From: a virus
Virus record (IMG/VR): IMGVR_UViG_3300018432_000013
Location: 48,927-112,926 of that record
Direction: 5' to 3' (one strand)
Length of the DNA: 64,000 nt
A program made the position numbers and the translations under genes. Positions 2,770-63,267 of this stretch are shown piece by piece; the stretch's first letter is position 1, and the number at the start of each line of letters is the position of its first letter. Below the pieces are notes generated by a model. It did not search any database, was not told where the DNA came from, and saw only the letters and a program-made list of their open reading frames with translations.

Positions 2770-3092
2770 TGGAAATCTACCTCGACCTCTGCGTGCGCTT
2801 GCGATGAATCAATGACGCTGAGCCAGTGGCGAATGCGCACCTCGAGTGCGAAGCGGGCGTAGGGCCCAATCATCCATCGCCAGCGCTGGTACCAATCCAG
2901 CTTCACCACCACGTGAAGACGCGGCCAACCGCCGCCCTCGCCAAACACCAGTGTTCCGTCAATGCAGACGTTGCGATAGCCCAAGCTGTGCGCGGCAAGC
3001 ACCGCGGCATCGATCACGCGCTGCTTTTCAATGCGACGGTCGTGGCAGCGAACCTCGACCTCCACATGATAGGGCGAAGACGCCGCCGTCAC
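2766..3092 (-). CDS. Hypothetical protein
   Basis: 4-bp overlaps with both neighbours. Confidence 0.6.
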   Translation of the reverse strand: MTAASSPYHVEVEVRCHDRRIEKQRVIDAAVLAAHSLGYRNVCIDGTLVFGEGGGWPRLHVVVKLDWYQRWRWMIGPYARFALEVRIRHWLSVIDSSQAHAEVEVDFQ

Positions 3093-5062
3093 GGCTCGAC
3101 CTCACCCGCAGGCGCCCGCGCGCGCTCCGCTTCCGTCCGCGTGACGAGCTTTCGCGTCACGACACGCGCCATCTTGTTTCGAAGCGCGACGAGCACGCTC
3201 GCAATCTCGTCGAGGTCCTCCTCGTCGACCTCGACCTCGAACTGCTTGCGCGCAGGCGTCACGCGCTGCTTGGGCGGCTTGGGCGGCTTGTTGCCACCGA
3301 ACTGCCCGTTCGGCGTGCGTCCCTGGCCATCTGCGGGCGCCTGGTTGTCGCCCGTCTCAGTTGTCGACGACTCGGGCTCGGAGTTCGGCGCCTGGTTGTC
3401 CGGGTTGGTGTCTTCTGCTTCCGGCGTGGAGGCGCCGAGCCCGTCTGACTGGTTGACGCTCGCCAGGGTGAGCTTGAGCGGCATGTCAGCCCAGGGCGCG
3501 TCGATGCGCGGGAAGTTGCGGTTGAAGACCCCCTGCGAGAGCTCCATCAGGATGTTGGGCGGGATGAAGTCCTGCAGATCGTGAATCATCTTGGCGAGCG
3601 ACTCTGGATCGCGCTGCGTTGGGCCGTTCGACTTGAGCTTCCAACGCTTGACGTTGAGCGCCGGCAGGATGTCGCGGTTCATGCGGTAGTCGAACGTCTG
3701 GCGCTCCGGCTCGAACACCTGCCGCTCTGCGAAATCCAGGGCGGCCATCGCTGTACTGCGGTTGAAGTCGCGCGTGTCGCCACGCAGCATCCTGGGCAGT
3801 CGAAACGACATGCCCACCTTGTCGATATTACGCTCGTCGTAGTTCTGAAAGAGCCCGTCCGAGTTCTGCGCTTCCGTGAGCGGCTTGAGCTCGATCTTCA
3901 TGCGGCCCGAGTTCTCAAACGCCTGCGACTCACCACCCTCCGCCTCGATGACGAGAATCTTGTGGTAGTTCTGCTTGCCGCGGATGTTGTTGGTGATGAA
4001 GCTCTCGAGCCGCTCGGTCGAGTCCTTCGTCAACCTGCCTCCCGAGACGAGCACCGCGAGTGGCGGCACGCTCTTGTTCTCGAAGTAGCTGAAGTTGACC
4101 TCTTCGGACTGGCGCGAGCCGAAGACGCTGAGCAGGTTTCCGATCCAACGCGGCACGCCGTACGCCGTACGCGAAGAGGGCACCTTGAAGTGCATCATCT
4201 CGGTAGCCGCAGTGCTGTGCTTCTCGTCGAGCTGCATCGCGTCGACGTCCGCAAACGCCTTGCCCGAGCGCGAGCTCACAACGCGTGGATCTCCAAACTC
4301 CTTGAAGAAGACCGCTTGCCCGGCGACCTTCTGAATGTAGCGGCGAAACCGGCGCTTGCGTGTGACGTCCTCGAAGTCCTGGGTGGGCGTGCGCCGCTTG
4401 GTTTTGTACTCGGTCATCTCGACGTCGAGCTTCGTCAGGCGCACGGTGAAGGCTTCGACGTAGTTGAACTGGGAAATCCCGCCCACTCGATTGCGAACGA
4501 CCTCCCAGTACCCGTTGCCGGTAATCTCGACGTCCTCTCGCGTGCGGCGGCGCAAGTCGACGAAGCTCATCTCTGAGCAGTCGTCGAAGAACGCCGCCAG
4601 CTTCAGCGTCTCGGCGCGCTGCTCGTTGGCGAGCTGCTTGATACGCTGCTGCACCTCTTCGTCGGTCGGCTCTTCCACCTGCACGTTGTCGCTGTCGCCC
4701 TGGCGCTCCATGGCGATCAGTGCGCGCACGTCATCTTCGGTAGAGTCAGCCTCGAGATCGGTCACCGCAGTGAACGCATGGCCGAAGCCGTCGATGTTCG
4801 TCGCGTACGCGTCGACATTCTGGCGCAGCGCATTGCTGTGCTCGAACAGCAGCACGAGCACGCGTGGGTCGTAGGGCGGCTCAAGCGCCCCGCGCTCGCT
4901 GAAGAACTGCTCATCCTCTTCGATGTTCTGAATCGCGCGTGTCTCGAGCACGCCTTCGTCACGCAGCTTGATGATGCGTGCGCGCACCTCGCCGATGCGC
5001 GGGTCTCGCCCAAACCCATTTTCATCGACCGGCGCAGCCGTCGTTTCAGTCTCATCTGCCAC
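3089..5062 (-). CDS. Phage portal protein (PBSX family)
   Basis: LEPPYDP, TGNGYWEVVRN, EMMHFK...YGVPRW, NFSYFENKSVPP, FRLPRMLRG motifs; follows terminase. Confidence 0.92.
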   Translation of the reverse strand: MADETETTAAPVDENGFGRDPRIGEVRARIIKLRDEGVLETRAIQNIEEDEQFFSERGALEPPYDPRVLVLLFEHSNALRQNVDAYATNIDGFGHAFTAVTDLEADSTEDDVRALIAMERQGDSDNVQVEEPTDEEVQQRIKQLANEQRAETLKLAAFFDDCSEMSFVDLRRRTREDVEITGNGYWEVVRNRVGGISQFNYVEAFTVRLTKLDVEMTEYKTKRRTPTQDFEDVTRKRRFRRYIQKVAGQAVFFKEFGDPRVVSSRSGKAFADVDAMQLDEKHSTAATEMMHFKVPSSRTAYGVPRWIGNLLSVFGSRQSEEVNFSYFENKSVPPLAVLVSGGRLTKDSTERLESFITNNIRGKQNYHKILVIEAEGGESQAFENSGRMKIELKPLTEAQNSDGLFQNYDERNIDKVGMSFRLPRMLRGDTRDFNRSTAMAALDFAERQVFEPERQTFDYRMNRDILPALNVKRWKLKSNGPTQRDPESLAKMIHDLQDFIPPNILMELSQGVFNRNFPRIDAPWADMPLKLTLASVNQSDGLGASTPEAEDTNPDNQAPNSEPESSTTETGDNQAPADGQGRTPNGQFGGNKPPKPPKQRVTPARKQFEVEVDEEDLDEIASVLVALRNKMARVVTRKLVTRTEAERARAPAGEVEP

Positions 5063-6260: not shown

Positions 6261-7841
6261 TCACCCGAGCACACGAACTTCACCGCCCCGATGTTTCGCC
6301 GCGTACGCACGCGCAGCCTCACGCCCGATCCACTGCGCCATGAGGCAATCGCCGGTGTGCCCGTCTGGGGAGTAGTAGCGAGTCTCTTGCTCCCAAACTT
6401 GGACGTTCGGCTCGGTCACGAGCTGCGTCTCCCCGTTCACCACGCCAAGCTCACAAGGGATGAGCCAGCTTGCCGCCTCGAGCTCTCCAGCGAGCGATTC
6501 GACGCCGTACGCTCGCGAGTGCTTGTTCATGCCCGTGCGAAAGCCGCGCACAAGAATCTCCGGATAGTCTTCGGCGAGCCACTCAAGCAGGTACTGCTGC
6601 GCAGAGTTGTTCTCGACGAACATCCAGCTCCGATAGCGCGTCCAAACATCGACCACCTGCGCGATGATCTCCGGGCTCTTCCAGCGGCCGCGGCGAATGT
6701 TCAGAAGCTGCCGCGTCTGATCTGGCCAGAGCAGGAACGTGAAGAGCACGGTGTGATCGGCGGAGTCCTGCTTCGAGACGCCGAGGTCGATGCCCGTGAA
6801 CGTGCGAAAGCCGGGCGCGAAGCGAAACGACTTCGGCCGCAGGTCCCAACTGAGCCCCTTTCTGCGCCAGTACTCAGGGCCTATCCAATGCACGAAGTCG
6901 CGCAGGCTCTTGAACATCGGATAGCCGAGCCCGCGCTGTTTGCACTTGTCGATCCACGCCTGTTGAAACCGCGCATCCTCATCCGCATGCGCCTCGCACA
7001 TCATCATGCGTGCGAACTCGGTCGGGCCGTACTCCTCCGTGCGCACCTTGTTGATGCGCTCCTTGGGCCAGCGCTGCGGAGACGCGAGGTTGCCCGCCGC
7101 ATCCATCACCGGGTACTTCTTGGCAAGCCACCCTTGCCGCGCGAGCTCGTGCGCGAAGTCGTCCGGATGAAACGCGTTGGCGAGCACGATGACTTGCGAC
7201 CGCTTCGAGAGGCGTGAGAACACCGAGGCGCGGATCCACGTCCCCGTCTTGTTGCGCTGGTACGCCGTGCGCGTGTTCTCTTCGACCAGCACGTCGTCGA
7301 TGATGACCACGTCGAGACGCGCGCCCTGCACTGCGCCGTTCGGCGAGACCGCCTGCACCGACGGATCCTTGATGATGCCGGGACGCGCGATGGTGATCGC
7401 GTGGTCGGTCCACATCACACCCCGGCGCAAGTCCGGAAAGATGTGATGCAGGGTCGCGTTCGTCTCGATGTGCCGGCGCAACGAGGCGATGATCTTCTTC
7501 ACCTGCTTCTCAGCCGCCGCGAGGATGGCGATACGCAGGCGAGGATTACGGCCGAGCAGCCAGAGCACCCGGCCGACCGAGAACTGCTGGCTCTTGCCCG
7601 ACTCGGGGAACGCCCAGATGACCATGTTGCGGCCCGTGTCCGCCGTCCCATGCCACTCGTAGTGCATGGGCAGCATCTCGATCGGGTCGCCGGTCTCCTC
7701 GTCCTTGAGCGTGAGCTCGCAGAACAGCGCGCAGTCCTCGCGCGCAAGCTCCAGCAGGCTCGCGTACGCCGCCTGCGCCTGCTTTACCTCAGCGGCCCGA
7801 TCGTAGGTCGGATCGCCGCTCTGCATGCTCCTGGCCCCCAC
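6261..7841 (-). CDS. terL: Terminase large subunit
   Basis: Walker A-like PESGKS, GARLDVVIIDD Walker B, C-terminal nuclease GIDLG...DHT...GDCLMA; upstream of portal. Confidence 0.9.
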   Translation of the reverse strand: MGARSMQSGDPTYDRAAEVKQAQAAYASLLELAREDCALFCELTLKDEETGDPIEMLPMHYEWHGTADTGRNMVIWAFPESGKSQQFSVGRVLWLLGRNPRLRIAILAAAEKQVKKIIASLRRHIETNATLHHIFPDLRRGVMWTDHAITIARPGIIKDPSVQAVSPNGAVQGARLDVVIIDDVLVEENTRTAYQRNKTGTWIRASVFSRLSKRSQVIVLANAFHPDDFAHELARQGWLAKKYPVMDAAGNLASPQRWPKERINKVRTEEYGPTEFARMMMCEAHADEDARFQQAWIDKCKQRGLGYPMFKSLRDFVHWIGPEYWRRKGLSWDLRPKSFRFAPGFRTFTGIDLGVSKQDSADHTVLFTFLLWPDQTRQLLNIRRGRWKSPEIIAQVVDVWTRYRSWMFVENNSAQQYLLEWLAEDYPEILVRGFRTGMNKHSRAYGVESLAGELEAASWLIPCELGVVNGETQLVTEPNVQVWEQETRYYSPDGHTGDCLMAQWIGREAARAYAAKHRGGEVRVLG

Positions 7842-48037: not shown

Positions 48038-49179
48038 CCAAATATGCCCTGATCGGCGACCCCCACGTCGGCAACTTCTCGCGCTTCGGAGGCGTGAAGA
48101 AGCTCGGCATGAACCGGCGTTGTGAGCTCACCGTCAAAGCGTTGCGCGATGCGCTCCTGCGCGCTGTCGCTGAGAAGGCCGACTACGCTGTGATCCTCGG
48201 TGACCTCTTCGACTCGATGAAGCCCGAGCCGCAGCTCATCGACACGCTACGGCAGACGTTTCGTGCGTTCGCCAAAGATCTGCAAATCATCCTTCTCAAA
48301 GGCAACCACGATTCAGCAAGCGACGAGCCGCGCGACACAGCGCTCTATGCCGTGATCGAAAAGCACGTCATCGTGGTCGACCAGCCACGCATCCTGCGCG
48401 AAGCCGATCCGTACCAAGCAACCCAAGGGCCCTGGAAGTCGTGCAACCCGCCGCTCGTTCTGGTGCCCTTCCGATCGGGGCCTGTGATCGAGTGGCTCCC
48501 CGGCTTGCTGGAAGAGCTCCACGTGCCAACAGGTGCCATCCTGTGCCTGCATGCCGGCATCAAGGACGAGGAGACGGCGCCGTGGCTGCTGGGCGCCCCA
48601 GACGCCATCGAGATGAGCGAGCTCGATGCGCTGATGGACAAGCACGGTATTGACCTCGTGTTCGCCGGCAACTGGCACGAGCAGCGAAACTGGCCGCACG
48701 AGGGCATCTTCCAAGTCGGTGCGCTCTGTCCGACAGGCTTTTCCAACCTCGGCACAGACGAGTACGGGCACGTCAAGGTGGTCAGCCTAGAGGCGGGCGA
48801 CAACCAAGCGTTCGTGCAGGATCACTACATCGCAGGCCCGCGCTTCCTGAAGCTTGGGCCGGACGACATGCCGACCTCGTACCTGCCTGAGGAGCACAAC
48901 GACCGCCTGTTCATCGAGTGGAAGGTGAACGCGGAGAGCCTTCACGCAGCGCGCGCCGAGCTCGACCAGTTGACCGAGCAGGGGCTCATCGAGGGCGGCA
49001 TCGCGCTCCCTGACACCTCTCAGGCGACCGAAGGTCTCAGGCAGGCCGCACTCGCCGCCAAGCACACCGTGGGGATTGCCGAGGCGGTGGGCGCGTTCGT
49101 GGCCAAGCTGCAGATGCCGCCGCTCGCCGATCGCGAGTCAGTGCACGCGCGAATCCGCGCATACACAGGCCTCGAGTAG
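48034..49179 (+). CDS. SbcD/Mre11-like metallophosphoesterase nuclease
   Basis: GDPH, LGDLFD, GNHD, GNWH. Confidence 0.85.
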   Translation: MTKYALIGDPHVGNFSRFGGVKKLGMNRRCELTVKALRDALLRAVAEKADYAVILGDLFDSMKPEPQLIDTLRQTFRAFAKDLQIILLKGNHDSASDEPRDTALYAVIEKHVIVVDQPRILREADPYQATQGPWKSCNPPLVLVPFRSGPVIEWLPGLLEELHVPTGAILCLHAGIKDEETAPWLLGAPDAIEMSELDALMDKHGIDLVFAGNWHEQRNWPHEGIFQVGALCPTGFSNLGTDEYGHVKVVSLEAGDNQAFVQDHYIAGPRFLKLGPDDMPTSYLPEEHNDRLFIEWKVNAESLHAARAELDQLTEQGLIEGGIALPDTSQATEGLRQAALAAKHTVGIAEAVGAFVAKLQMPPLADRESVHARIRAYTGLE

Positions 49180-53799: not shown

Positions 53800-54225
53800 C
53801 TATGATCGCAGCCAGTTTTCTACGTGCAAGTTCGGCACGCGCCCAAAGTCTTTCACGTTGTCTGTGACCACTACACACTCGAGAGCGATGGCGTGGCCGG
53901 CAATCCAGAGGTCATTGACGCCGATCAAGTTGCCCGTCTTCTCAAGATACGCGCGCAGTTGGCCGTACCTGAAACTGGCACGGCCGTCGAGACCGTGGAC
54001 CACAAGCCGCGAGAACACGCGATCGAAGTGATGCGTAAGTTGCCCAGCCCGCTCAGGGTTGGTTTCGCGCTTCTTATCGATGCCGAAGTGCAGCTCTCCT
54101 CGGACAATCTCGCTTGTGCAGAGCTGGTCTTCCGGTACCTCAAGCACGCGCCGCGCACACACGCCTCTGGGGTCAAGCATCAGCGCCGAGATGATGTTCG
54201 TGTCGAGCATGTAGCGCGGCATCAA
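53800..54225 (-). CDS. vapC: PIN-domain toxin
   Basis: YMLDTNIIS...ELHFG...IGVNDLWIAGHA...VTDNVKDFGRVPNL.VENW. Confidence 0.93.
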   Translation of the reverse strand: MMPRYMLDTNIISALMLDPRGVCARRVLEVPEDQLCTSEIVRGELHFGIDKKRETNPERAGQLTHHFDRVFSRLVVHGLDGRASFRYGQLRAYLEKTGNLIGVNDLWIAGHAIALECVVVTDNVKDFGRVPNLHVENWLRS

Positions 54226-54467
54226 AAGAAGTCCTCGGGCGCAGTCAGCGGGTCCTCGCCCACATCGAGCGTGTCATCGATGGGCTCAAGCGAAGCGAGC
54301 ACTTGCGCGAGCGTCTCCTGGACGATGGGCTCGATAATCAAGCGCGTGCCCTCCCGACGTACCGAGACCTCTTCCAAGTCGAACTCGAACTCGCGAGGGA
54401 TGCGCAGCGCCTGGTTGCCGCCGTTCCTGAACAAGCGCACTTGCTTGGTATTGCTGGAGCTTTCCAT
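54222..54467 (-). CDS. vapB: AbrB/SpoVT-fold antitoxin
   Basis: VRLFRNGGNQALRIPREFEF. Confidence 0.92.
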   Translation of the reverse strand: MESSSNTKQVRLFRNGGNQALRIPREFEFDLEEVSVRREGTRLIIEPIVQETLAQVLASLEPIDDTLDVGEDPLTAPEDFF

Positions 54468-54837
54468 CAGACAACGAGCATATGCTCAAGCATCGGATAT
54501 GTCCAGACATAGCTCTTCAAACTACCTGAGCCAAGCCCTCGCGACTGAAAGCTCGACACGCGGCAGCTCGCGCACTAACGCTCGTTGATGGCCCTCAGCG
54601 GAGAACATCGACCGTACGTCGCGGCACAGCTCGCGCTCCGAGAGATTACAGAAACGCCGGGCTCTGTCTTACGCCGTCTGGCATCTGACATCCTACGTAT
54701 CCCCAACACAGCCGAGCCGGGCTCCGCTGTACCAGCGGAGCAGTTACGGCTGCGTGTCCTCGTGCATGAACTGCTCGGCTCGATCGCGGACGACAACGAT
54801 CGCATCGAGAGAGCGGTACGGTGATAGGCACGTCGTC

Positions 54838-55218
54838 TTATGCGAGTCGCAGGGGGATTCCGGCGTCGTGCATGTGCTGGTAATCAGTATCTGCAGCGAC
54901 CAAATCGCACCCGTGGGTAAGCGCGTAGGAAGCAATCAGCAAGTCGATTGTCTTGGCGGTGACGCCTTTGGTGCGCAGATGCTGGCCGAGGTTCCCGGCA
55001 TAGGTCCATAGCGCGTGCGGCTGCCGCAGGTGGTGACATTGGGCAAAGAGGCCCATGACGTGTTGCCGCTCGGACTCACGCAAGCCGCGGCTAATCTCCG
55101 TGAGCACCGGCCCACAGAGCGCTGCCTCGCCGTCGCGAAGCGCCAACTCGACGCTGTCAGCCACTTCGCCAGGCCCGCGGAAGAATGCGATCCAAGCAGA
55201 TGTATCGACGAGCTTCAC
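54838..55218 (-). CDS. vapC: PIN-domain toxin
   Basis: LVDTSAWIAFFRG...VLTE...TIDLLIA...D.DY. Confidence 0.9.
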   Translation of the reverse strand: MKLVDTSAWIAFFRGPGEVADSVELALRDGEAALCGPVLTEISRGLRESERQHVMGLFAQCHHLRQPHALWTYAGNLGQHLRTKGVTAKTIDLLIASYALTHGCDLVAADTDYQHMHDAGIPLRLA

Positions 55219-55418
55219 GAGCGTGTGTATTCGAGGTCGAGGTCAAAGTCGATCTTGCCGCGCAGACTCGCAAGCTCGCGTAGCTTCTCACGCCGATCAA
55301 ACTCTTCGAGCGAGGCTACCAGCGTCTCCGTGATGCCTTTGCCGGTGGCCTGTTGCACACGCTCAAGCAATGCGGCAGGCAGGTTGACGGTGACCTTCTT
55401 GATGTCGGCTTGGTCCAT
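55215..55418 (-). CDS. vapB: RHH antitoxin
   Basis: KVTVNLP..LL...TGKGITET...LRGKIDFDLDL; overlaps vapC. Confidence 0.85.
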   Translation of the reverse strand: MDQADIKKVTVNLPAALLERVQQATGKGITETLVASLEEFDRREKLRELASLRGKIDFDLDLEYTRS

Positions 55419-55544
55419 GGCCGAGTATGGCAAAAACCATGGTTCGCGCCAGCTCCTTTCATGTATCAGGGAGGGCAGTGACGAGTTCGCAGAAGGAAGG
55501 TTATGTAAACTAAGGTGGGATAGGGTGCGACTGACCAGTGCGTG

Positions 55545-55628
55545 GTCCCAGCTTCAAAGGTGCTGAGCTGCCTCTGTTTCAATGACCTGCTACGAGTCTC
55601 AGCTTCGAAGGTGCTGAGCTACCTTTGC
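55545..55628 (-). CRISPR. Detached CRISPR mini-array (2 degenerate repeats, about 23-nt spacer)
   Basis: gtcccagcttcaaaggtgctgagctgcc and gtctcagcttcgaaggtgctgagctacc match the main array repeat. Confidence 0.75.
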
Positions 55629-55876
55629 CGATCAGGGTCTTCGACGTGAACGTGCAGCCAGACTTTCCCGTCCGCGTCCGGTACGAGCTTGTTGAGATCA
55701 GTGCCGCCTTGTAGCGGTGGCAGTTTGGGCATCAGCTCCCGGCACGCTTTACAGATGACCATGAGCGGCGGGATGTACGTGAAGCCGCCGCTCGGGTACT
55801 CCGTATAGGAGCCCGGCCTTGCTTTCACGCCTGTGGGCTTGCCGCATTTCATGCATGCGATCGTCTCATCGCTCAT
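55619..55876 (-). CDS. Small Zn-finger protein; stop codon lies inside the mini-array repeat
   Basis: CMKC...CKAC. Confidence 0.6.
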   Translation of the reverse strand: MSDETIACMKCGKPTGVKARPGSYTEYPSGGFTYIPPLMVICKACRELMPKLPPLQGGTDLNKLVPDADGKVWLHVHVEDPDRQR

Positions 55877-55910
55877 GACCCCCCCCCCTATGCCGCTCCG
55901 CAGGTGATCG

Positions 55911-56288
55911 TTACTCGATACGCACGGGCACACCCTTGCTGTCGATGACCCGGCCCTCGGCCAGCTCGACGAGCGTGCGTTTCACGCTGTCCCGTAGTTG
56001 GTCCTGTGCGGCGTCTACGATGGGCTTGGGTGCATTCTTCAAGCCGTACATCTTGGCAGCGATTGAATCGGCGAGCGTGTCCACCAAGCCCGGTGTGTTG
56101 AGCACGAGCGCTGCAATCGCGGCGGGATCGGTGGCCGTCTGCAGGAGTTCACGTCGGTACTCGGCGATGGTCTCAGCGGCTGAGAGACGATCAGGCGTTC
56201 CCTTGATCGCACCGATGGTTGCCCATTCGATCACTTCGTCAGCGACTTCCCAATCGCGCGTAGCGATTCGTTCCTGGTGGACGCTCAT
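55911..56288 (-). CDS. Hypothetical protein
   Basis: MSVHQER..., GAGG RBS. Confidence 0.6.
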   Translation of the reverse strand: MSVHQERIATRDWEVADEVIEWATIGAIKGTPDRLSAAETIAEYRRELLQTATDPAAIAALVLNTPGLVDTLADSIAAKMYGLKNAPKPIVDAAQDQLRDSVKRTLVELAEGRVIDSKGVPVRIE

Positions 56289-56421
56289 GGCTTGCCTCGT
56301 CCGAGCAGTTTGAGTAGCCGGTCGTAGCAAGCGCGGCACATCCAAAACGCGCCGTCCGCACCATGCACGCACATCACGGAAGGTTGGCCGCAGCCGCATG
56401 GACTCTGCTTTGGAGGCTCTT

Positions 56422-56634
56422 TCATGGTTCACCCGGGATCCAAATCCCCTCACTCGCGAGTTCAGCGGATGCGAGTCGTGTTGCCTCGCGCAGCGAGAGC
56501 CCGCCATCAATGTGCGCGATGGCGATGCGTTCGAGGTAGCGATAGGGCACCACGCCATCGGACAGGCGGATGTGCTCATCGCTGGGGTTTACGCCGTGCA
56601 CCGGGACGCGCTCAGTTTTTTCGAGTGCTGTCAT
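56422..56634 (-). CDS. Hypothetical protein
   Basis: ERIAI..IDGGLS..EA motif. Confidence 0.55.
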   Translation of the reverse strand: MTALEKTERVPVHGVNPSDEHIRLSDGVVPYRYLERIAIAHIDGGLSLREATRLASAELASEGIWIPGEP

Positions 56635-56705
56635 CGCTACCGATCTTGCTTATACCAGCCGCAGTGGCCATGGCAGCAAGTCCGGCCGTCGTCCCGCGCG
56701 GCAAA

Positions 56706-56954
56706 TCACTCGCCGAGCTTCGCATCAGGCTGGTTGAACCAGTCCGCTGGCACCTCTGAACGCAGTTGCGATTCAAGCGCGCGCATCGCTGTCGCGGTAT
56801 TGCGCGCGAGTGCCGCACTCTTCGGCGAGTGCTCAGCGCTGAACTCGGCCATCTCGTCGAGCGACGGATAGAGCTTCGCGAGCTCATCGGCCACCTGGAG
56901 CTTGGCCTGGTGGACTTTACCCTCAGACGTTTCGAAAATCCGCGCGTCGACCAT
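56706..56954 (-). CDS. Hypothetical protein
   Basis: GGAG RBS; coupled to the upstream ORF. Confidence 0.55.
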   Translation of the reverse strand: MVDARIFETSEGKVHQAKLQVADELAKLYPSLDEMAEFSAEHSPKSAALARNTATAMRALESQLRSEVPADWFNQPDAKLGE

Positions 56955-56956
56955 GA

Positions 56957-57157
56957 TCACTCTCCACTTGGGTAGCTGTACCAATCGTCACCATCGTCCT
57001 CATCTGAGAGCGCGCACGCTTGTCCTGCAGGTGTGTGGGTCTGCATGTGCTTGCGCTTTTCGGCGAGGCAATCGCCGCAGATGACGTGCCGTGCTTTCGA
57101 GCTCGGAAGCCGGAGGACCCGGCCACACCCCATGCACCGTGCAACATCCACGCGCAT
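56957..57157 (-). CDS. Small Zn-finger protein
   Basis: CMGC...CGDC; GGAGG RBS about 50 nt after the last array repeat. Confidence 0.55.
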   Translation of the reverse strand: MRVDVARCMGCGRVLRLPSSKARHVICGDCLAEKRKHMQTHTPAGQACALSDEDDGDDWYSYPSGE

Positions 57158-57213
57158 CCCGCCCTCCGCGTCCAATGTGAGCCCATCCAGGCTACACCGC
57201 GTGAGTGCCTGTT

Positions 57214-59589
57214 GTCTCAGCTTCTTGAGCGCTGAAGCAGCCATTGCTTTGCACCTGTACACGATGTCTCAGCTTCTCAGGCACTGAGCGGCCGTTGCCG
57301 CTGCGACAGGCGACAAGTCTCAGCTTCTTGGGGCGCTGAGCAGTCGATAGCGTTACACCAAACTCGGTACCGTCTCAGCTTGAAAAGCGCTGAGCAGCCT
57401 TGGGTGGAAAACATGGTGAAGTTGTCCCAATGGTCTCAGTTTTGAAGGCACTGAGCTACCGCACGAAACATGCTGCGAGAAGTTGTCACGGTGGTCTCAG
57501 CTTCAAGGGCGCTGAGCAGCCGTTGCTTTACGCAGGGCCTGAGTCACCTGTTGTCTCAGCTTCCCAAAGGCGCTGAGCAGCCGTTGCCGTTTGCAGTTTT
57601 CGATCACTTCCCTGTCGCTTTTCTCATCCACGGCTCAGCTTTAGAGGCGCTGAGCAGCCGTTGCCGATCTAAGCTGCGCAATTTACAGGCAGTCTCAGCT
57701 TTGAAGGCGCTGAGCAACACCTATCGCGACTTGACAGCCCCTCATCTTCTGAATCTCAGCTTTAAAGGCACTGAGCAGCCATTGCAGCAGGAGATCGCCG
57801 CGTTGTCTCAGCTTCAAAGGCGCTGAGCGGCCCAGACGCTTTGATTCCGTGCGGTGGAGTCACTCACATCTCAGCTTGGAGGGCGCTGAGCAGCCGCTGC
57901 CAAAGGGGTTCGTTGTTGCGGTCTCAGGCTTCAAGGGCGCTGAGCAGCCGCTGATTCGTAAAGAAAGCCCCCGGCTCTCTCAGCTTCGAAGGCGCTGAGC
58001 AGCCCATTGTCGAGCTTCGCCACTTGTTGTCTCAGCCTCGCAGGGCGCTGAGCGGCCATTACCGTATGCCGTCACATGGAAGCGTCTCAGCTTCAAGGGC
58101 GCTGAGCAGCCGCTGCCAGAGGTGGGTTCGTTGGTTCGGTCTCAGCATTGAAAAAGCGCTGAGCAGCCATCGCCACTGGCAACTATCTAGTCTCAGCTTC
58201 AAAAGGCGCTGAGCAGCCATTGTGAGTTCGATGGCTGCAAGTCTCAGCTTCAAGGGCGCTGAGCAGCCTTTGCGAACTTCTTCATGGACGCGTTTCAGCT
58301 TCAAAGGCGCTGAACAACCATTTGCGTCTGGTCGTCTCAGCTTCCAGGGCGCTGAGCAGCCGTTGTTGCACGTGCAGCACGGTGCGCATATGAGTTCCGA
58401 CGTCTCAGCTTCGCGGGCGCTGAGCAGCCATTGTTGCAACCTGGGACGAACAGTGGTCTCGGCTTCAAAGGCGCTGAGCAGCCATCGCAACTACGCGCGA
58501 CGGTGCCGTACGTCTCAGTTTCAAAAGGCACTGAGCAGCCAGCAGTCCCCAGTCTCAGCTTCAAGGGCGCTGAGCAACCGTTGCTGCCATCGGTCTACCT
58601 TGGGCCATCTCGTGCGCCAGGTTGTCTCAGCTTCAAGGGCGCTGAACAGCCATCGCAACTACGCGCGACGGCTGCGGTGGCCGCGATTCGACGCATGTCT
58701 CAGCTTCAAAGGCGCTGAGCAGCCGCCACTCGGTTCGCCATCTCAGCTTCAAGGGCGCTGAGCAGCCGTCGCTACCCTCAGGGAAGGGGGCTCATGTTCT
58801 GAAGATCTCAGCTTCAATGGGGCGCTGAGCAGCCGTTGTTCTTTACCCGTGGCACTTCTTGTCTCAGCTTCAAAGGCGCTGAGCAGCAGATCAACTCACC
58901 TTCAATCTGTCTCAGCTTCAATGGGCGCTGAGCAGCCGTTGCTACAGCCAAGGCACCAGGCGAGCATCTCTGAACGCTCGGTCTCAGCTTCAAGGGCGCT
59001 GAGCAGCCATTGCTGCCGTGACCGCACCAGCCTGATGACTGCGTCTCAGCTTCAAGGACGCTGAGCAACCGTTGCTACCTGGACAACTTAAGCTCGACGA
59101 CGACGCTAGAGGTCTCAGCTTCTAGGGCGCTGAGCAACCGTTGCTACGCTCTGAGAACACGGCCAACCTCGTCGCGGAACTGACCGTCTCAGCTTCTAGG
59201 GCGCTGAGCAGCCGTTGCTACGATATGCGGCGAAACTGCGTGACCGTGTTCTACCAGTCTCAGCTTCAAGGGCGCTGAGCAACCATTATTTGCTGCTCAT
59301 GCACAAGCCGCCCGGGGAACCATATGGATGTCTGTCTCAGCTTCAAGGGGCGCTGAGCAACCGTTGCAGCGCATCCTTCCTGCGGAACCTCGCAGCGTCC
59401 ACTTCGAGGTCTCAGCTTCAAGGGCGCTGAGCAGCCACTGCAGCAACGTGGCGCTAGTCGGCCGCGGCGTCATGTTCGAGGTCTCAGCTTCAAGGGCGCT
59501 GAGCAGCCATTGCAGCCACCGCATCCATCGCTCGCCGAGACTTGGCCGCTGTCGTCTCAGCTTCAAGGGCGCTGAGCAACCATTGCAGC
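57214..59589 (-). CRISPR. CRISPR array, about 40 repeats; 36-nt repeat GCTGCAAYGGYTGCTCAGCGCCCTTGAAGCTGAGAC; leader at 59590-59666
   Basis: Counted 40 copies of gtctcagc-N9/10-gctgagc with largely unique spacers. Period is about 72 nt near the cas gene and 40-65 nt for most distal units. Confidence 0.95.
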
Positions 59590-59666
59590 AGCTCCGCCAC
59601 AAGGCGAATCATCATATGAAGTTGTCAACAGTGCTGCGAGCGGCCCCGAGATCCGCGCGCTTCACC

Positions 59667-61484
59667 TTACTCCGCAACGTCCGTAGCAGCAGGCTGCGCA
59701 TGGCGCTTCCGAAACCGCTCCGCGCGCTTGCTGGGCTTGCGAGCGGGTGCGGGGTTTGTCGCGTCACCGGAGTGATCACGTGTGAACCGACGCAGCAGAT
59801 TGATGGCTGCGTTATGATCCTGATCCCACAGCTCACCGCAGTACTCGCAACGATGCCAGAGCTCTTCGCCCTGCTCCCACGAGCAAACGCCTCCGCACGC
59901 ATGGCAATGGCTCGTGGTGCCGCTCGCATCGACGCTGATGACGAGCCCGCCTTCGCGTTGCACTGCCTGCGTGAGGCACTGCCGAAACTCGCCGGGTGCG
60001 CTCGCATGCAGCTGCGCGCGCTGCGCGAGCGGCGCATCCTCGCCTTGCTCCGGGGCCTTCAAGCGCTTGGCCGTCGCCAGATCGAACTGCTCAATCACCA
60101 CACGCCCATAGGCGCGCGCGATCTGCGCAGCGGTGCAGCGGTAGAGCTCGCGCCGCGCAAGCAGTGCCTTACGCTGCGCATCGACCTCCCACTGATACAG
60201 GTGCCGCGAACGATGCAGCCAGCGCTCCATGGCCGCGAAGATGCGCTCGTCTCCTACGAAGCGCGTACGCCGCCAGTCGAGCACGAGACGCCGTAGCCGC
60301 CCGTGTGAGCGCCACTGCCCGAGGTGCGGGCGCTCCCGTGCAAGCCACTCCGGGGCCTTTCCCGCATCGAGCCAGCGAGCGAGCCAGCGGACGGCGCGGT
60401 TGAAGTGCAGATCTTGAATCTCCCTCAAGTCTCGTGCCTTGCGCAGACGCATCCGCACTGACTCCGGCATCACCACCTCACGGTGATTTCCTTGGTCGTC
60501 AGCGCAGTAGGCCACGCGCAAGCTCCCGTCAGGGCGCTGTCGCCAGCCGAGATCGAGTGCCACGATTCCCGGGCGCTCAGGCATCACTGCCGGCTCGCGC
60601 GCGTACGTGACGCTGACCGTCCACTGCTCACGAAAACCGAGGACACGAAGGCGCACCACCGCGCCTTTGATGCGCGCATCGTCAGGGATCGGGCGGTGAA
60701 GGATCAAAGGGAACACCGCCCAGACAGGCGAACGCCCTGCACTCTCCACGCGCATCCACAAGCGCGTGCGTGAACAGCGACGACGCACCCCTCGCGACGA
60801 CGCATGCCACGCATCAGGCGATACGGGCTCGATGCGCAGCCGCGTGTCCTCGCAGCCGTAGAGCTCGGCGACAGTCATGCCGCCTTGGACCTGCACACCG
60901 ATGCGCCCTTCTGCACTGCCTTCGCCGGCCGCAGAGATGCGCTCACGACCGCGCGCACGGCGAAACGACGGATCGATGGTCGCCTTACGGGCCTGCTCGG
61001 CCGAGGCTTCTTCAAGCAGGTACGTTCCCCACCACGGCGCGCGCATCGCACGCAGCGCCTTGCTCCAAATCTTCGCGCGCTCGTCGAGCTGTTCGACGGC
61101 TGCACGCAGCTCAGCATTATCGCGCGCTGCCTGGCGGGCGTCTTTCAATGCGACGCGTGCGACTCGCAAGGCACTCTGCACGTCCTTGGCACGCTGATCG
61201 AGGTCCGCCGTATCGACGCGGCGACGCGCTTCCTTGCGTACGCCCTTGATGGCTTCGCGCAGGCTCATCAGCTCCGCAGCAAGCTCCTCGACCCGCGCCT
61301 CGACTGACTCGAGATCCACGTACTTTCGCCGCAGGTCGCGATAGACCGCGCGTCGGCAACGCTCCAGCGCGATGAGCTCATTGTAATACCGGGCGCCAAG
61401 GCGCATCTGCTGACGCACGACATCTGCGTTTTCGATCGGCGCAAGGCAACCGTACTGCGCAACGCGTGCTTCGAGTGTGGTCAT
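59667..61484 (-). CDS. cas12m: Compact type V CRISPR effector, Cas12m (V-M / V-U1)-like, TnpB-derived RuvC protein
   Basis: 605 aa; long N-terminal coiled coil, IGVQVQ, LHRPIP.DA.I, RuvC-I VALDLGWR, QWRS, RuvC-II VVIE, APG, Zn finger CHAC/CEYC, RuvC-III WDQDHNAA; abuts the array. Confidence 0.82.
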   Translation of the reverse strand: MTTLEARVAQYGCLAPIENADVVRQQMRLGARYYNELIALERCRRAVYRDLRRKYVDLESVEARVEELAAELMSLREAIKGVRKEARRRVDTADLDQRAKDVQSALRVARVALKDARQAARDNAELRAAVEQLDERAKIWSKALRAMRAPWWGTYLLEEASAEQARKATIDPSFRRARGRERISAAGEGSAEGRIGVQVQGGMTVAELYGCEDTRLRIEPVSPDAWHASSRGVRRRCSRTRLWMRVESAGRSPVWAVFPLILHRPIPDDARIKGAVVRLRVLGFREQWTVSVTYAREPAVMPERPGIVALDLGWRQRPDGSLRVAYCADDQGNHREVVMPESVRMRLRKARDLREIQDLHFNRAVRWLARWLDAGKAPEWLARERPHLGQWRSHGRLRRLVLDWRRTRFVGDERIFAAMERWLHRSRHLYQWEVDAQRKALLARRELYRCTAAQIARAYGRVVIEQFDLATAKRLKAPEQGEDAPLAQRAQLHASAPGEFRQCLTQAVQREGGLVISVDASGTTSHCHACGGVCSWEQGEELWHRCEYCGELWDQDHNAAINLLRRFTRDHSGDATNPAPARKPSKRAERFRKRHAQPAATDVAE

Positions 61485-61491
61485 GGGTCCC

Positions 61492-61995
61492 CTACCCTTT
61501 CGGCCCCGTGCCGAGCATCAACGCCGGCATCTCACCGCTGTCGTACGCCAGCTGCAACTTCGGTTTGACTGCTTCTGCCATGGTCGAGCCGTCAGGCAAA
61601 AGGATGTCGCCCAAAAACGTGGCCTCGAAGTCGGCGTCGCCCGAAGCGACCGCCTCGAGCCGCGCCTTCAGGATGAGAACAGCAGCGCGCCAGCGACGCC
61701 GCCACTCCTTCTCCTGCAGCGGTTTGATCTGCGCCGCTGTTCGCTTCCGCCAAGGCGCCTTCGGATCGAAAAGCACGTACGGCTCTGCCTCAGGAAAGCG
61801 GACGAACTGCTTCAACATGCGCCCGCGCATGCGATACATGACCGTCCAGCCGGCGTCGGCCATGTGAAGCCCGATCTCCGCGGCGCCGTGCTTTCTCAGC
61901 AGGTCCTCAAGCTCAGCACGCGAGCGCTCAACGGGCACATCGGTGCCCTCTGCGAACCGACGCGTCCTGGGAGGCGCTTCCACCCTCCCCTTCAT
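61492..61995 (-). CDS. Conserved phage hypothetical protein
   Basis: T.VPVERSRAELEDLLRKHGA...RWR...LKARLEAV.SG...FL..ILLPDG.T. Confidence 0.75.
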   Translation of the reverse strand: MKGRVEAPPRTRRFAEGTDVPVERSRAELEDLLRKHGAAEIGLHMADAGWTVMYRMRGRMLKQFVRFPEAEPYVLFDPKAPWRKRTAAQIKPLQEKEWRRRWRAAVLILKARLEAVASGDADFEATFLGDILLPDGSTMAEAVKPKLQLAYDSGEMPALMLGTGPKG

Positions 61996-62582
61996 GACCG
62001 CGCCTCCTTGATGCGCTTCACCTGATCGGGATGCGGAATGCCGCTCTTAGCGAGCCACTCCGTCACCGCCTTCTCGACGACGTGGCTGAGCGTGACCCGC
62101 TCAAGCGCTGCGGCGAGGTCGAGCCAGTCGAGCAGGCCGGTCTCGAAGTGGATGGTGGTCACGCGCGTTTGCCTCGTGCCGCCCCGCAGCGTGCGCGGGT
62201 TGCGCTTGGTGCCGGGCTTGGTCTCCGGCAGTGATATCACGGTTTCACGACGTTTCGACGCCTTGGGCTTTGGCTTCTTCGCTGGCTTGGCTGCTTGAGA
62301 CTCGACCACCGTGGTTACTTGTTGGTCTGCAGGTTTGACCGCTTGGCGCTCCGGAGGCGTAGAGGCTTGCGACTCCACCGCAACAACAGCCTGCTCGCTT
62401 GCCGGCGCGTCCGGAGACTGCTCTTCCGGAGCAATCGTATCTTTCCCAGCAGCGCCCTTCCCTGCCGCGGCAACGCGTGCGCGAAACGCCGCGCGCGTCT
62501 CGGCAGTTGGCGTGATGCGGCGCATCGATTGCACCGCGAGTCCAGCAGCGAGCTGCGCTGCCTCCTCATCCCTGCGTGACAT
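61992..62582 (-). CDS. ParA partner (ParG-like centromere-binding protein, C-terminal RHH)
   Basis: Disordered N-terminus; TTIHFETGLLDWLDLAAALERVTLSHVVEKAVTEWL; overlaps the parA end. Confidence 0.7.
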   Translation of the reverse strand: MSRRDEEAAQLAAGLAVQSMRRITPTAETRAAFRARVAAAGKGAAGKDTIAPEEQSPDAPASEQAVVAVESQASTPPERQAVKPADQQVTTVVESQAAKPAKKPKPKASKRRETVISLPETKPGTKRNPRTLRGGTRQTRVTTIHFETGLLDWLDLAAALERVTLSHVVEKAVTEWLAKSGIPHPDQVKRIKEARS

Positions 62583-63267
62583 GCTCACTCCCCTCAACCT
62601 CTCTCTGGCGACGCGCACGCATCCCGGGCAACAGCTCTTCAAGCTCGTCGACGAGCGCTCGGAACTCCTGCGCCGCAGGTGACTTGGGCTTGTGCGACGT
62701 GATCCCGCGGCCCAGCACGGTGGCCGTGTTGTAGTCGTTGCTGTGCTTGAGCTCCGTTCGAAGCTTCGGCATCGAGTGCTTTCCGAGCGCGATGCGCGCG
62801 GCCTCGCTGATCTTGGTGCTGGTCTTTCCGGTGATCGCGATGAAGGCCTGAAGCTCTGGCCGTAGCTCCCGTTGCGCATCAGCGACCACCGCAAGCGTGT
62901 CGGCGAGGCCCCAGATATCCTCCGGCTTCGTCGGGTTGACCGGAATGAGCGCCAGGTCGGCGAGCTCAAGCGCGGTCGCCAGCCGGTCGTTGAGCGCGCC
63001 CTGGGTGTCGACGATGAGCACATCGCACTGCGCTGCGTAGTGCCGGATCCGCTCCTCCATGTTGTTGTCGTCGACCCCGTACACGGGAGGCACGAGGGTG
63101 TGAAAGGCGGCTGCGAGCCCCGCCCAATGCGTCGCTGTCCCCTGTGGATCCGCGTCGATCACAATCACGCGCTGGCCACGCAGCGCCCACTCGACCGAGC
63201 AGTGACGCGCGAAGAAGGTCTTCCCGGAGCCACCCTTTTGCACACAAGCCACCACGATGTCGCCCAT
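62566..63267 (-). CDS. parA: ParA-family partition ATPase (short plasmid type Ib)
   Basis: QKGGSGKT, IDADPQG, IVDT, ADLALIP, SPAAQE. Confidence 0.9.
   Translation of the reverse strand: MGDIVVACVQKGGSGKTFFARHCSVEWALRGQRVIVIDADPQGTATHWAGLAAAFHTLVPPVYGVDDNNMEERIRHYAAQCDVLIVDTQGALNDRLATALELADLALIPVNPTKPEDIWGLADTLAVVADAQRELRPELQAFIAITGKTSTKISEAARIALGKHSMPKLRTELKHSNDYNTATVLGRGITSHKPKSPAAQEFRALVDELEELLPGMRARRQREVEGSEHVTQG

Follow-up and report, generated by a model that had tools for sequence, protein, structure and literature searches.

Whether a phage that lacks adaptation genes nevertheless carries a working CRISPR-Cas system, and what has become of the long repeat array that belongs to it, is the question raised by positions 57,214 to 61,484 of a 64,000-nucleotide stretch of viral DNA (the window, positions 48,927 to 112,926 of IMG/VR record IMGVR_UViG_3300018432_000013). 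The original prediction, made from the letters of the window, had described a stand-alone Cas12m-like protein next to a co-oriented array of about 40 guides. Our analysis supports a genuine type V-M CRISPR-Cas12m module on a complete 113-kb phage, working as proposed below with a two-tier array, and we assign this reading a probability of roughly 75%. The Cas12m effector is an ordinary member of a characterized family, so the locus is a further example and not a new system. Its unusual aspect is the architecture of the array rather than the effector, in that the majority of the guides have been reduced to roughly what the effector uses. The parts of the locus, in window coordinates, are the following.

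59667..61484, minus strand: cas12m, 605 aa, intact, with RuvC triad D311/E465/D556 and a C-terminal zinc ribbon (TNB)
59590..59666, minus strand: putative leader of 77 nt that separates cas12m from the first repeat
58946..59589, minus strand: cas-proximal block of 9 repeat-spacer units with periods of 62-77 nt and spacers of 26-41 nt
57214..58945, minus strand: distal block of 31 repeats, spacers mostly shortened, periods 40-79 nt with a mode of 51-56
55545..55631, minus strand: satellite mini-array, 1.6 kb past the main array, in which two repeats (41-46 bits) enclose a ~15-nt spacer

The identity of the effector was investigated by profile and structure comparison against Cas12m, Cas12f and TnpB, a check that had been named beforehand, and the outcome was Cas12m. 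The predicted RuvC/zinc-finger reading frame was present with motifs of the types that had been listed for it, namely IVALDLGWR, GQWRSH and WDQDHN, and with a CxxC...CxxC zinc ribbon. The RuvC residues are D311 (in VALDLGWR), E465 (in VVIEQFDL) and D556 (in WDQDHN). Of the triads described for the family, D-E-D, H-D-D and N-D-D, it thus has D-E-D, which was found in 136 of 155 aligned relatives. The sole Pfam match was the Cas12f1-like target-nucleic-acid-binding (TNB) domain at residues 498-563. PDB chain 23vw_A ('DNA-binding protein Cas12m') aligned with residues 9-565 at an E-value of 7e-83, and further Cas12m chains were also aligned (Cas12m2, 8hhl, E 5e-30; GoCas12m, 8pm4, E 2e-17; 23vu); chains of Cas12f and TnpB matched the zinc ribbon only (E 0.003-0.09). 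The PADLOC Cas12u1 model covered residues 6-568 (E 1e-97). The Cas12m fold comprises a helical REC lobe, a WED domain, and a split RuvC domain with a zinc-ribbon target-nucleic-acid-binding domain. For an AlphaFold2 model calculated from 30 homologues, with a mean predicted local distance difference test score of 89.9, Foldseek gave template modeling (TM) scores of 0.78-0.80 to Cas12m2 (8hhl) and 0.79 to GoCas12m (8pm4), while Cas12f, TnpB and Fanzor reached only 0.38-0.44 by query length. Because the full-length sequence, profile and fold matches favor Cas12m, the gene is an intact Cas12m of the D-E-D kind, type V-M, and not TnpB. Identity with Cas12f (type V-F), a class of effectors of 400-550 aa that act with a tracrRNA, was ruled out by the restriction of its sequence matches to the zinc ribbon and by its low TM scores.

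Relatives of the protein were missed by single-protein scans of IMG/VR and of metagenomes, but alignment-based scans recovered them at 57 IMG/VR loci (L001-L057, on records of 6 to 406 kb), at 24 loci of representative genomes, and also in metagenomes, on no fewer than 388 stretches. The closest homologues, which lie on long contigs, share 55-66% identity, and a maximum-likelihood tree placed the phage Cas12m within a clade of 28 metagenomic sequences with a support of 1.0. In most relatives an array lies directly downstream of the gene. Cas1 was detected in none of 49 related viral records, 18 of which are at least 90% complete; among viral contigs, Cas12m loci that have an array but lack adaptation genes are thus common. 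Among GenBank phages the sole homologue carrier was Virus Rctr197k (KX853510.1, 112387-114168), where the protein is annotated as similar to transposase. A September 2026 preprint presents MvCas12m as the first phage Cas12m (bioRxiv 10.64898/2026.09.14.751636). In the face of the 57 IMG/VR loci and of Virus Rctr197k, this claim does not hold.

The repeats were located by anchoring on the hairpin core, followed by alignment and a covariance model. Their consensus on the minus strand is GTAGCAACGGCTGCTCAGCGCCCTTGAAGCTGAGAC, with a length of 36 nt and AGAC at its end. The main array extends over 57214-59589 and contains 40 repeats and 39 spacers; all repeats are on the strand of the gene, and the first one begins at 59589, 77 nt after the cas12m stop. 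Repeat length and ending, distance, co-orientation and stand-alone layout were all as originally predicted. When the covariance model was run over the whole genome, it found the 40 copies of the main array, the two of the mini-array and one elsewhere, and no other hit above 15 bits. Type V-M systems have no tracrRNA; near the locus the model gave no repeat copy on the opposite strand, and the single such copy that it detected stands alone at a distance of 6.7 kb, counted across the ends of the genome. A search of 55000-62000 against Rfam returned no family. The 77-nt gap contains a perfect TTGACA at 59622-59627 (minus strand) with no -10 hexamer at a spacing of 16-18 nt, and no terminator-like site was found between cas12m and the array. 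A reading of the array as a coding repeat protein was rejected, since no long open reading frame (ORF) with a coding-type G+C content at third codon positions spans it.

In the repeat, a pseudoknot arm on the 5' side is followed by a hairpin on the 3' side, which stops 2 nt short of the spacer. In 42 aligned copies of the phage's repeat, pairing was kept in 98.4% of the stem and pseudoknot cells, and the hairpin was retained in all repeat units. Compensatory double changes occurred in four cells belonging to 3 pairs, which was equaled by 1-3 of 500 shuffles, a control that is indicative only because the copies are paralogues. The same plan was observed in 67 non-redundant repeats drawn from viral, genomic and metagenomic Cas12m loci: in 62 of them the stem spans at least 5 bp and stops 2 nt short of the 3' end, the stems comprise 52 different sequences, and the 5' segment is complementary to the hairpin loop. 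A pseudoknot of the 5' segment with the hairpin loop has been seen in cryo-EM structures (PMC11013384). A weak match of the array to a plasmid led to Allomeiothermus silvanus pMESIL02, on which the MsCas12m gene is followed by repeats GTAGCAACGCCTAGCTCAGGGGCTCGAAAACTGAGAC of the same plan.

The original prediction had treated the array as uniform, and this is where it departs from the measurements. Its figure of about 40 guides agrees with the 40 repeats and 39 spacers, but only 12 spacers are of canonical length and three are too short to guide. With a 36-nt repeat assumed, 12 spacers measure 32-41 nt, 8 measure 23-29 nt, 16 measure 12-20 nt and 3 measure 3-7 nt; the start-to-start periods are 68-79 nt (12), 59-65 nt (8), 48-56 nt (16) and 40-43 nt (3). 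The canonical spacers are found mostly beside cas12m. The nine cas-proximal units are almost all of canonical length and their repeats share 88% pairwise identity (96% in the hairpin part), and the repeats of the 30 units past them share 74% (84% in the hairpin, 53% in the 5' twelve bases). With distance from cas12m, divergence from the consensus grows (rho 0.57, P 1.5e-4) and the unit period shrinks (rho -0.39, P 0.014). Adjacent repeats have variants in common: GCTGCA is shared by units 1-4, and GTAGCA by units 6-10. Polarity together with variants shared between neighbors is the pattern expected if new units enter cas-proximally. The array is most likely two-tiered, with a young cas-proximal canonical tier and an older distal tier of diverged repeats and shortened spacers. 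Assembly collapse was considered as a source of the short spacers and rejected, because mis-joins between repeats delete whole units and leave spacer lengths unaffected.

The length of the shortened units can be compared with what Cas12m effectors use. The PmCas12m precursor is cut after repeat nucleotide 2-3 and at guide position 17-18, which yields a mature CRISPR RNA (crRNA) of ~50 nt with a ~33-nt repeat handle and a ~17-nt guide, and activity peaks at a 17-nt guide and falls past 20 nt (bioRxiv 10.64898/2026.03.26.714355). The heteroduplex of GoCas12m is 18 bp long (PMC11013384), and the crRNA of Cas12m2 complexes is disordered at nucleotides -36 to -30 and 16-20 (PMC10442227). Given these measurements, compact units would lack only what is removed from, or left unused in, the mature crRNA. 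Without resident adaptation machinery unit length would not be maintained, and units would shrink toward the functional minimum, some of them overshooting it.

Compact units were also found in relatives. A locus of the same clade with a 51% identical Cas12m (L088) contains 36 units that reach the contig end (2861-4535), and 32 of its 35 periods are 46-50 nt. In this array the repeat has shrunk to ~30 nt and the spacers to ~17 nt, and the stems, among them CGCGGT/ACCGCG, CGCGGC/GCCGCG, CGCAGC/GCTGCG and CGTGGT/ACCACG, are nearly always paired at 6 of 6 positions. Two unrelated viral loci, L004 (11831-13104) and L039 (9347-9710 and 11852-12393), have units of 46-50 nt as well, and in L039 the compact arrays flank cas12m on both sides. 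Across 84 non-redundant Cas12m arrays, 588 of 783 periods were 66-80 nt and 80 were 40-60 nt. Compact units are rare overall yet recurrent, and the fold of all-compact arrays is kept by compensatory change. The many compensatory stem variants held by the relatives' compact arrays argue for long-term selection on the RNA fold. No description of a partly compacted Cas12m array or of all-compact relatives was found in the literature searched.

A tentative proposal, for which we would not offer even odds, is that compact units (a ~30-36-nt handle and a ~13-20-nt guide) are a selected end state on adaptation-less elements, with the array turned into a hard-wired, minimal and permanent guide library whose units match the mature crRNA in size. 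Under this proposal the repeats would diverge freely while the RNA fold is kept, protecting the array from recombinational loss. The phage array would then show the transition, with an adaptive canonical front and a fixed compact back, and further fixed guides would be supplied by the mini-array and by the lone repeat next to rep. In a stronger version, the short spacers may be produced by a route other than Cas1-Cas2.

To look for targets, the spacers were compared with several sequence sets. In the phage's own genome (113 kb) there was no spacer match of at least 14 nt above chance and no seed of at least 12 nt proximal to the protospacer-adjacent motif (PAM). With the whole array as query, the best matches in GenBank phages and PLSDB plasmids had E-values of 0.7-9, which is chance, and the one PLSDB match of the array reflected repeat similarity to the MsCas12m array and not a spacer. 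Matches to 165 fetched Cas12m loci were at chance level, and three spacer 20-mers were absent from IMG/VR. The part of the proposed BLAST check that concerned phages and plasmids thus returned neither protospacer nor PAM. Since the phage's own genome, GenBank phages and PLSDB yielded no protospacer, the host genes or rival elements originally proposed as targets are candidates only.

The spacers do carry a signal among themselves. Three spacer pairs are identical at 11-13 of 15 positions in register from the PAM-proximal end (pairs 2/3, window 59359-59480; 24/28, 57892-58138; 35/36, 57396-57493), where 0.08 such pairs are expected after shuffling and three were reached in 0 of 2000 shuffles. 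The differences within the pairs look synonymous or codon-level, as though one site had been picked up twice from homologous genes, so the paired guides may be directed at homologous coding sites of variant targets. Growth of an array was observed in a related 36-kb IMG/VR phage, in which one sample (L032, compared with L024, L026 and L056) has two extra cas-proximal spacers that precede the shared spacer series (array from about 11734), in a record without Cas1. From this gain it follows that Cas12m arrays grow in nature without a Cas1 of their own. Acquisition through host Cas1-Cas2 in trans, as originally suggested, is plausible, and both the two-spacer gain and the canonical lengths and near-identical repeats on the cas-proximal side of the present array point toward it. 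Plasmid type IV-A systems provide a precedent for the use of host adaptation proteins (PMC11656645).

The genomic context was examined on the complete source record, of which the window is the right-hand end. This is a 112,926-bp IMG/VR genome with 123-bp terminal repeats and a completeness rating of 100%. It encodes a contractile-tailed phage (tail sheath, tape measure, baseplate wedge, portal, head protease and large terminase) with a family-A DNA polymerase, a DnaB-type helicase and a primase. The terminase and portal on which the phage context had been predicted were both confirmed, and the predicted lack of cas1 and cas2 in the window extends to the entire genome, where profile searches found no Cas1, Cas2 or Cas4. 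The genome also gave no Y1 TnpA transposase and no tyrosine integrase in such searches, which were positive in control genomes; serine recombinases were not searched for. The tail sheath is at most 33% identical to any protein in GenBank phages or PLSDB plasmids, and a comparison with a protein atlas gave no clear taxon. The features surrounding the module are listed here.

Window 6261-7841, minus strand: terminase large subunit, annotation confirmed
Window 3089-5062, minus strand: portal, annotation confirmed
Window 61492..61995, minus strand: 167-aa ORF ending 7 nt before the cas12m start, phrog_17260 match, unknown function
Window 62566..63267, minus strand: ParA-like partition ATPase upstream of cas12m on the same strand, plasmid-type maintenance region
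Within window 53800-55433: two PIN (VapC) toxin genes, one with a MazE-like antitoxin, beyond the downstream end of the array
Window 55619-55933, 55911-56579 and 56706-56984, all minus strand: three small unannotated ORFs between the mini-array and the main array
Genome 3219-4070, outside the window: putative rep gene with an HTH_36 domain as its sole match
Genome 4150-4186, plus strand and thus opposite to the array, outside the window: lone repeat (47 bits, E 1e-9)

The 167-aa ORF is probably co-transcribed with cas12m; its only homologue beside another cas12m gene is in L002, and no accessory gene was found to be conserved next to cas12m. The first repeat of the mini-array abuts the stop codon of a 104-aa ORF. 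The lone repeat occupies the intergenic region that separates the putative rep gene from a VWA-domain gene, directly past a terminator-like hairpin, and the sequence downstream of it, in the place of a guide, has no match in the phage genome. The CRISPR locus sits amid plasmid-type maintenance genes (ParA, VapC toxins and the putative Rep). Since ParA and two VapBC pairs are present and an integrase is absent, the phage probably persists as a plasmid-like prophage (phage-plasmid), as judged from gene content.

Processing of their own precursor crRNA and PAM-dependent binding of double-stranded DNA (dsDNA) without cleavage are known for characterized Cas12m orthologues (PMC11013384, PMC10442227, bioRxiv 10.64898/2026.03.26.714355). 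By analogy, the module of the phage, made up of cas12m, the 40-repeat array and one outlying mini-array, would work as follows. The array would be transcribed from the minus strand, probably with cas12m or just after it. Cas12m would cut the precursor inside each repeat and retain a handle of ~33 nt (pseudoknot and hairpin) with a guide of ~17-18 nt. The resulting complex would bind PAM-flanked dsDNA without cutting it. Transcription or replication would thereby be blocked at targets that lie elsewhere than in the phage genome, with competing mobile elements or host genes the likeliest ones. The cas-proximal tier, with its 32-41-nt spacers and near-identical repeats, would most likely have been added by adaptation proteins acting in trans; spacers of the older tier would have been trimmed to about the length read by the effector, and a few units beyond use. 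DNA binding without cutting is plausible for the phage protein by analogy with four tested D-E-D orthologues, including MsCas12m, which bound dsDNA, did not cut it and had no collateral activity (PMC11013384). Type V-M systems are described as strongly enriched on plasmids, are present in some prophages, silence rather than cut, and have been tied to competition between elements (PMC11656645). The family, layout and phage context of the original prediction stand, and its functional statements are plausible extrapolations.

Four other explanations have to be weighed against this mechanism. That the gene is TnpB of an IS200/IS605-type transposon, with repeats that have nothing to do with it, finds some echo in the C-terminal part of the protein, which scores weakly with TnpB models (NCBIfam guided_TnpB gives 60 bits where its cut-off is 100, and residues 429-566 only are covered), and in the transposase label that PHROG gives to related proteins. 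It is refuted by the present data: the protein matches Cas12m over its full length in sequence and fold, the genome has no Y1 TnpA, and a co-oriented array of Cas12m-type repeats stands 77 nt downstream of the gene, in the place of an omega RNA. Much less remote, yet still improbable, is an active RNA-guided nuclease that cuts rival DNA as that of Cas-phi phages does. The triad is canonical and widely kept among the relatives, and the authors of the myxophage preprint also raise an active nuclease as an option for MvCas12m (bioRxiv 10.64898/2026.09.14.751636), but the four D-E-D orthologues that bound dsDNA without cutting include MsCas12m with its similar repeat (PMC11013384), and the closest solved relative, 23vw_A, was deposited as a DNA-binding protein. 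Regulation of the phage's own genes (lysis-lysogeny, copy number) by self-targeting guides would suit a natural repressor such as Cas12m, and the positions of the lone repeat in the rep-proximal intergenic region and of the mini-array among maintenance genes would agree with it. We consider it very improbable, because the best spacer matches in the phage genome are at chance, none reaches 12 nt from the PAM-proximal end, and the sequence following the lone repeat is likewise without a match.

More weight, if still the lesser share, belongs to the view that only ~12 canonical units work and that the distal three quarters are a decaying relic whose hairpin was kept by recent origin or gene conversion. 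It would explain why spacer lengths are scattered over 12-29 nt instead of uniform, why three spacers have only 3-7 nt, why the 5' 12 nt of distal repeats are just 53% identical, and why one unit pair shares the PAM-distal and not the PAM-proximal end of the spacer. We regard this view as unlikely, as the hairpin is still paired in 99% of cells, with compensatory U-A replacements in diverged units, sixteen spacers have 12-20 nt and so lie near the published guide length of 17-18 nt, and relatives have long all-compact arrays with many compensatory stem variants. The two-tier module remains our preferred reading, and the following points weigh against it. The very short spacers and the degenerate 5' parts of the distal repeats show partial distal decay, and the pair that shares its PAM-distal end fits plain decay. 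No protospacer was found, hence neither a PAM nor a class of targets can be named. The intact RuvC triad makes cleavage compatible with the sequence. No convincing sigma-70 promoter was detected in the leader. The exact 24-nt repeat core occurred neither in IMG/VR nor in the representative genomes of 185,579 species, in a search that misses diverged repeats, hence no adaptation donor was identified. Finally, the plasmid-like lifestyle is read from gene content only.

The module can be placed beside several known systems. MsCas12m of the A. silvanus plasmid pMESIL02 (PMC11013384) resembles it in having a single effector of ~540-600 aa with a co-oriented array next to it, a 36-37-nt repeat with the same 5' GTAGCAAC, pseudoknot arm, hairpin and GAGAC end, no adaptation genes, and a mobile replicon as carrier. 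In contrast, MsCas12m is only ~32% identical to the phage protein (tblastn) and plasmid-borne, whereas the present carrier is a tailed phage with a far longer array and mostly shortened spacers. MvCas12m of myxophage MV-1 (bioRxiv 10.64898/2026.09.14.751636) is likewise phage-encoded, with 610 aa, a D/E/D triad, an adjacent array, no cas1, cas2 or cas4, and no spacer targets found; MV-1 is reported to have 8 spacers and an integrase, whereas the phage described here has 39 spacers in two tiers, ParA and no integrase. Cas12m2 (MmCas12m, PDB 8hhl) and GoCas12m (PDB 8pm4) share the whole-chain fold and the VALxLGWR, QWxS and xDQD motifs, but have an H-D-D triad in place of D-E-D and ~21-23% identity.

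Two more distant systems bear on the array. Plasmid type IV-A systems (PMC11656645) are also borne by mobile elements, non-cutting and adaptation-less, with a sizeable array; they silence rival plasmids and gain spacers in trans through the type I-E adaptation proteins of the host. They differ in their unrelated, multi-subunit class 1 effector, and compact spacers have not been described for them. Engineered shortened arrays (PMC10478742) share the idea that natural arrays exceed what interference needs and that trimmed units still work, but these are laboratory Cas9 constructs, whereas the shortening in the present Cas12m array is natural.

Type V-M systems on plasmids and prophages (PMC11656645) and one myxophage Cas12m (bioRxiv 10.64898/2026.09.14.751636) have been published already, and the interest of this locus lies in its array. 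If active, the compact units would show an adaptive array turning into a fixed regulatory guide set, and they would be natural templates for dense multiplex Cas12m arrays in repression, base editing or epigenome editing. The position of the locus in the maintenance region of a likely plasmid-like phage fits the role that has been proposed for type V-M systems in the competition between mobile elements, and makes this role testable.

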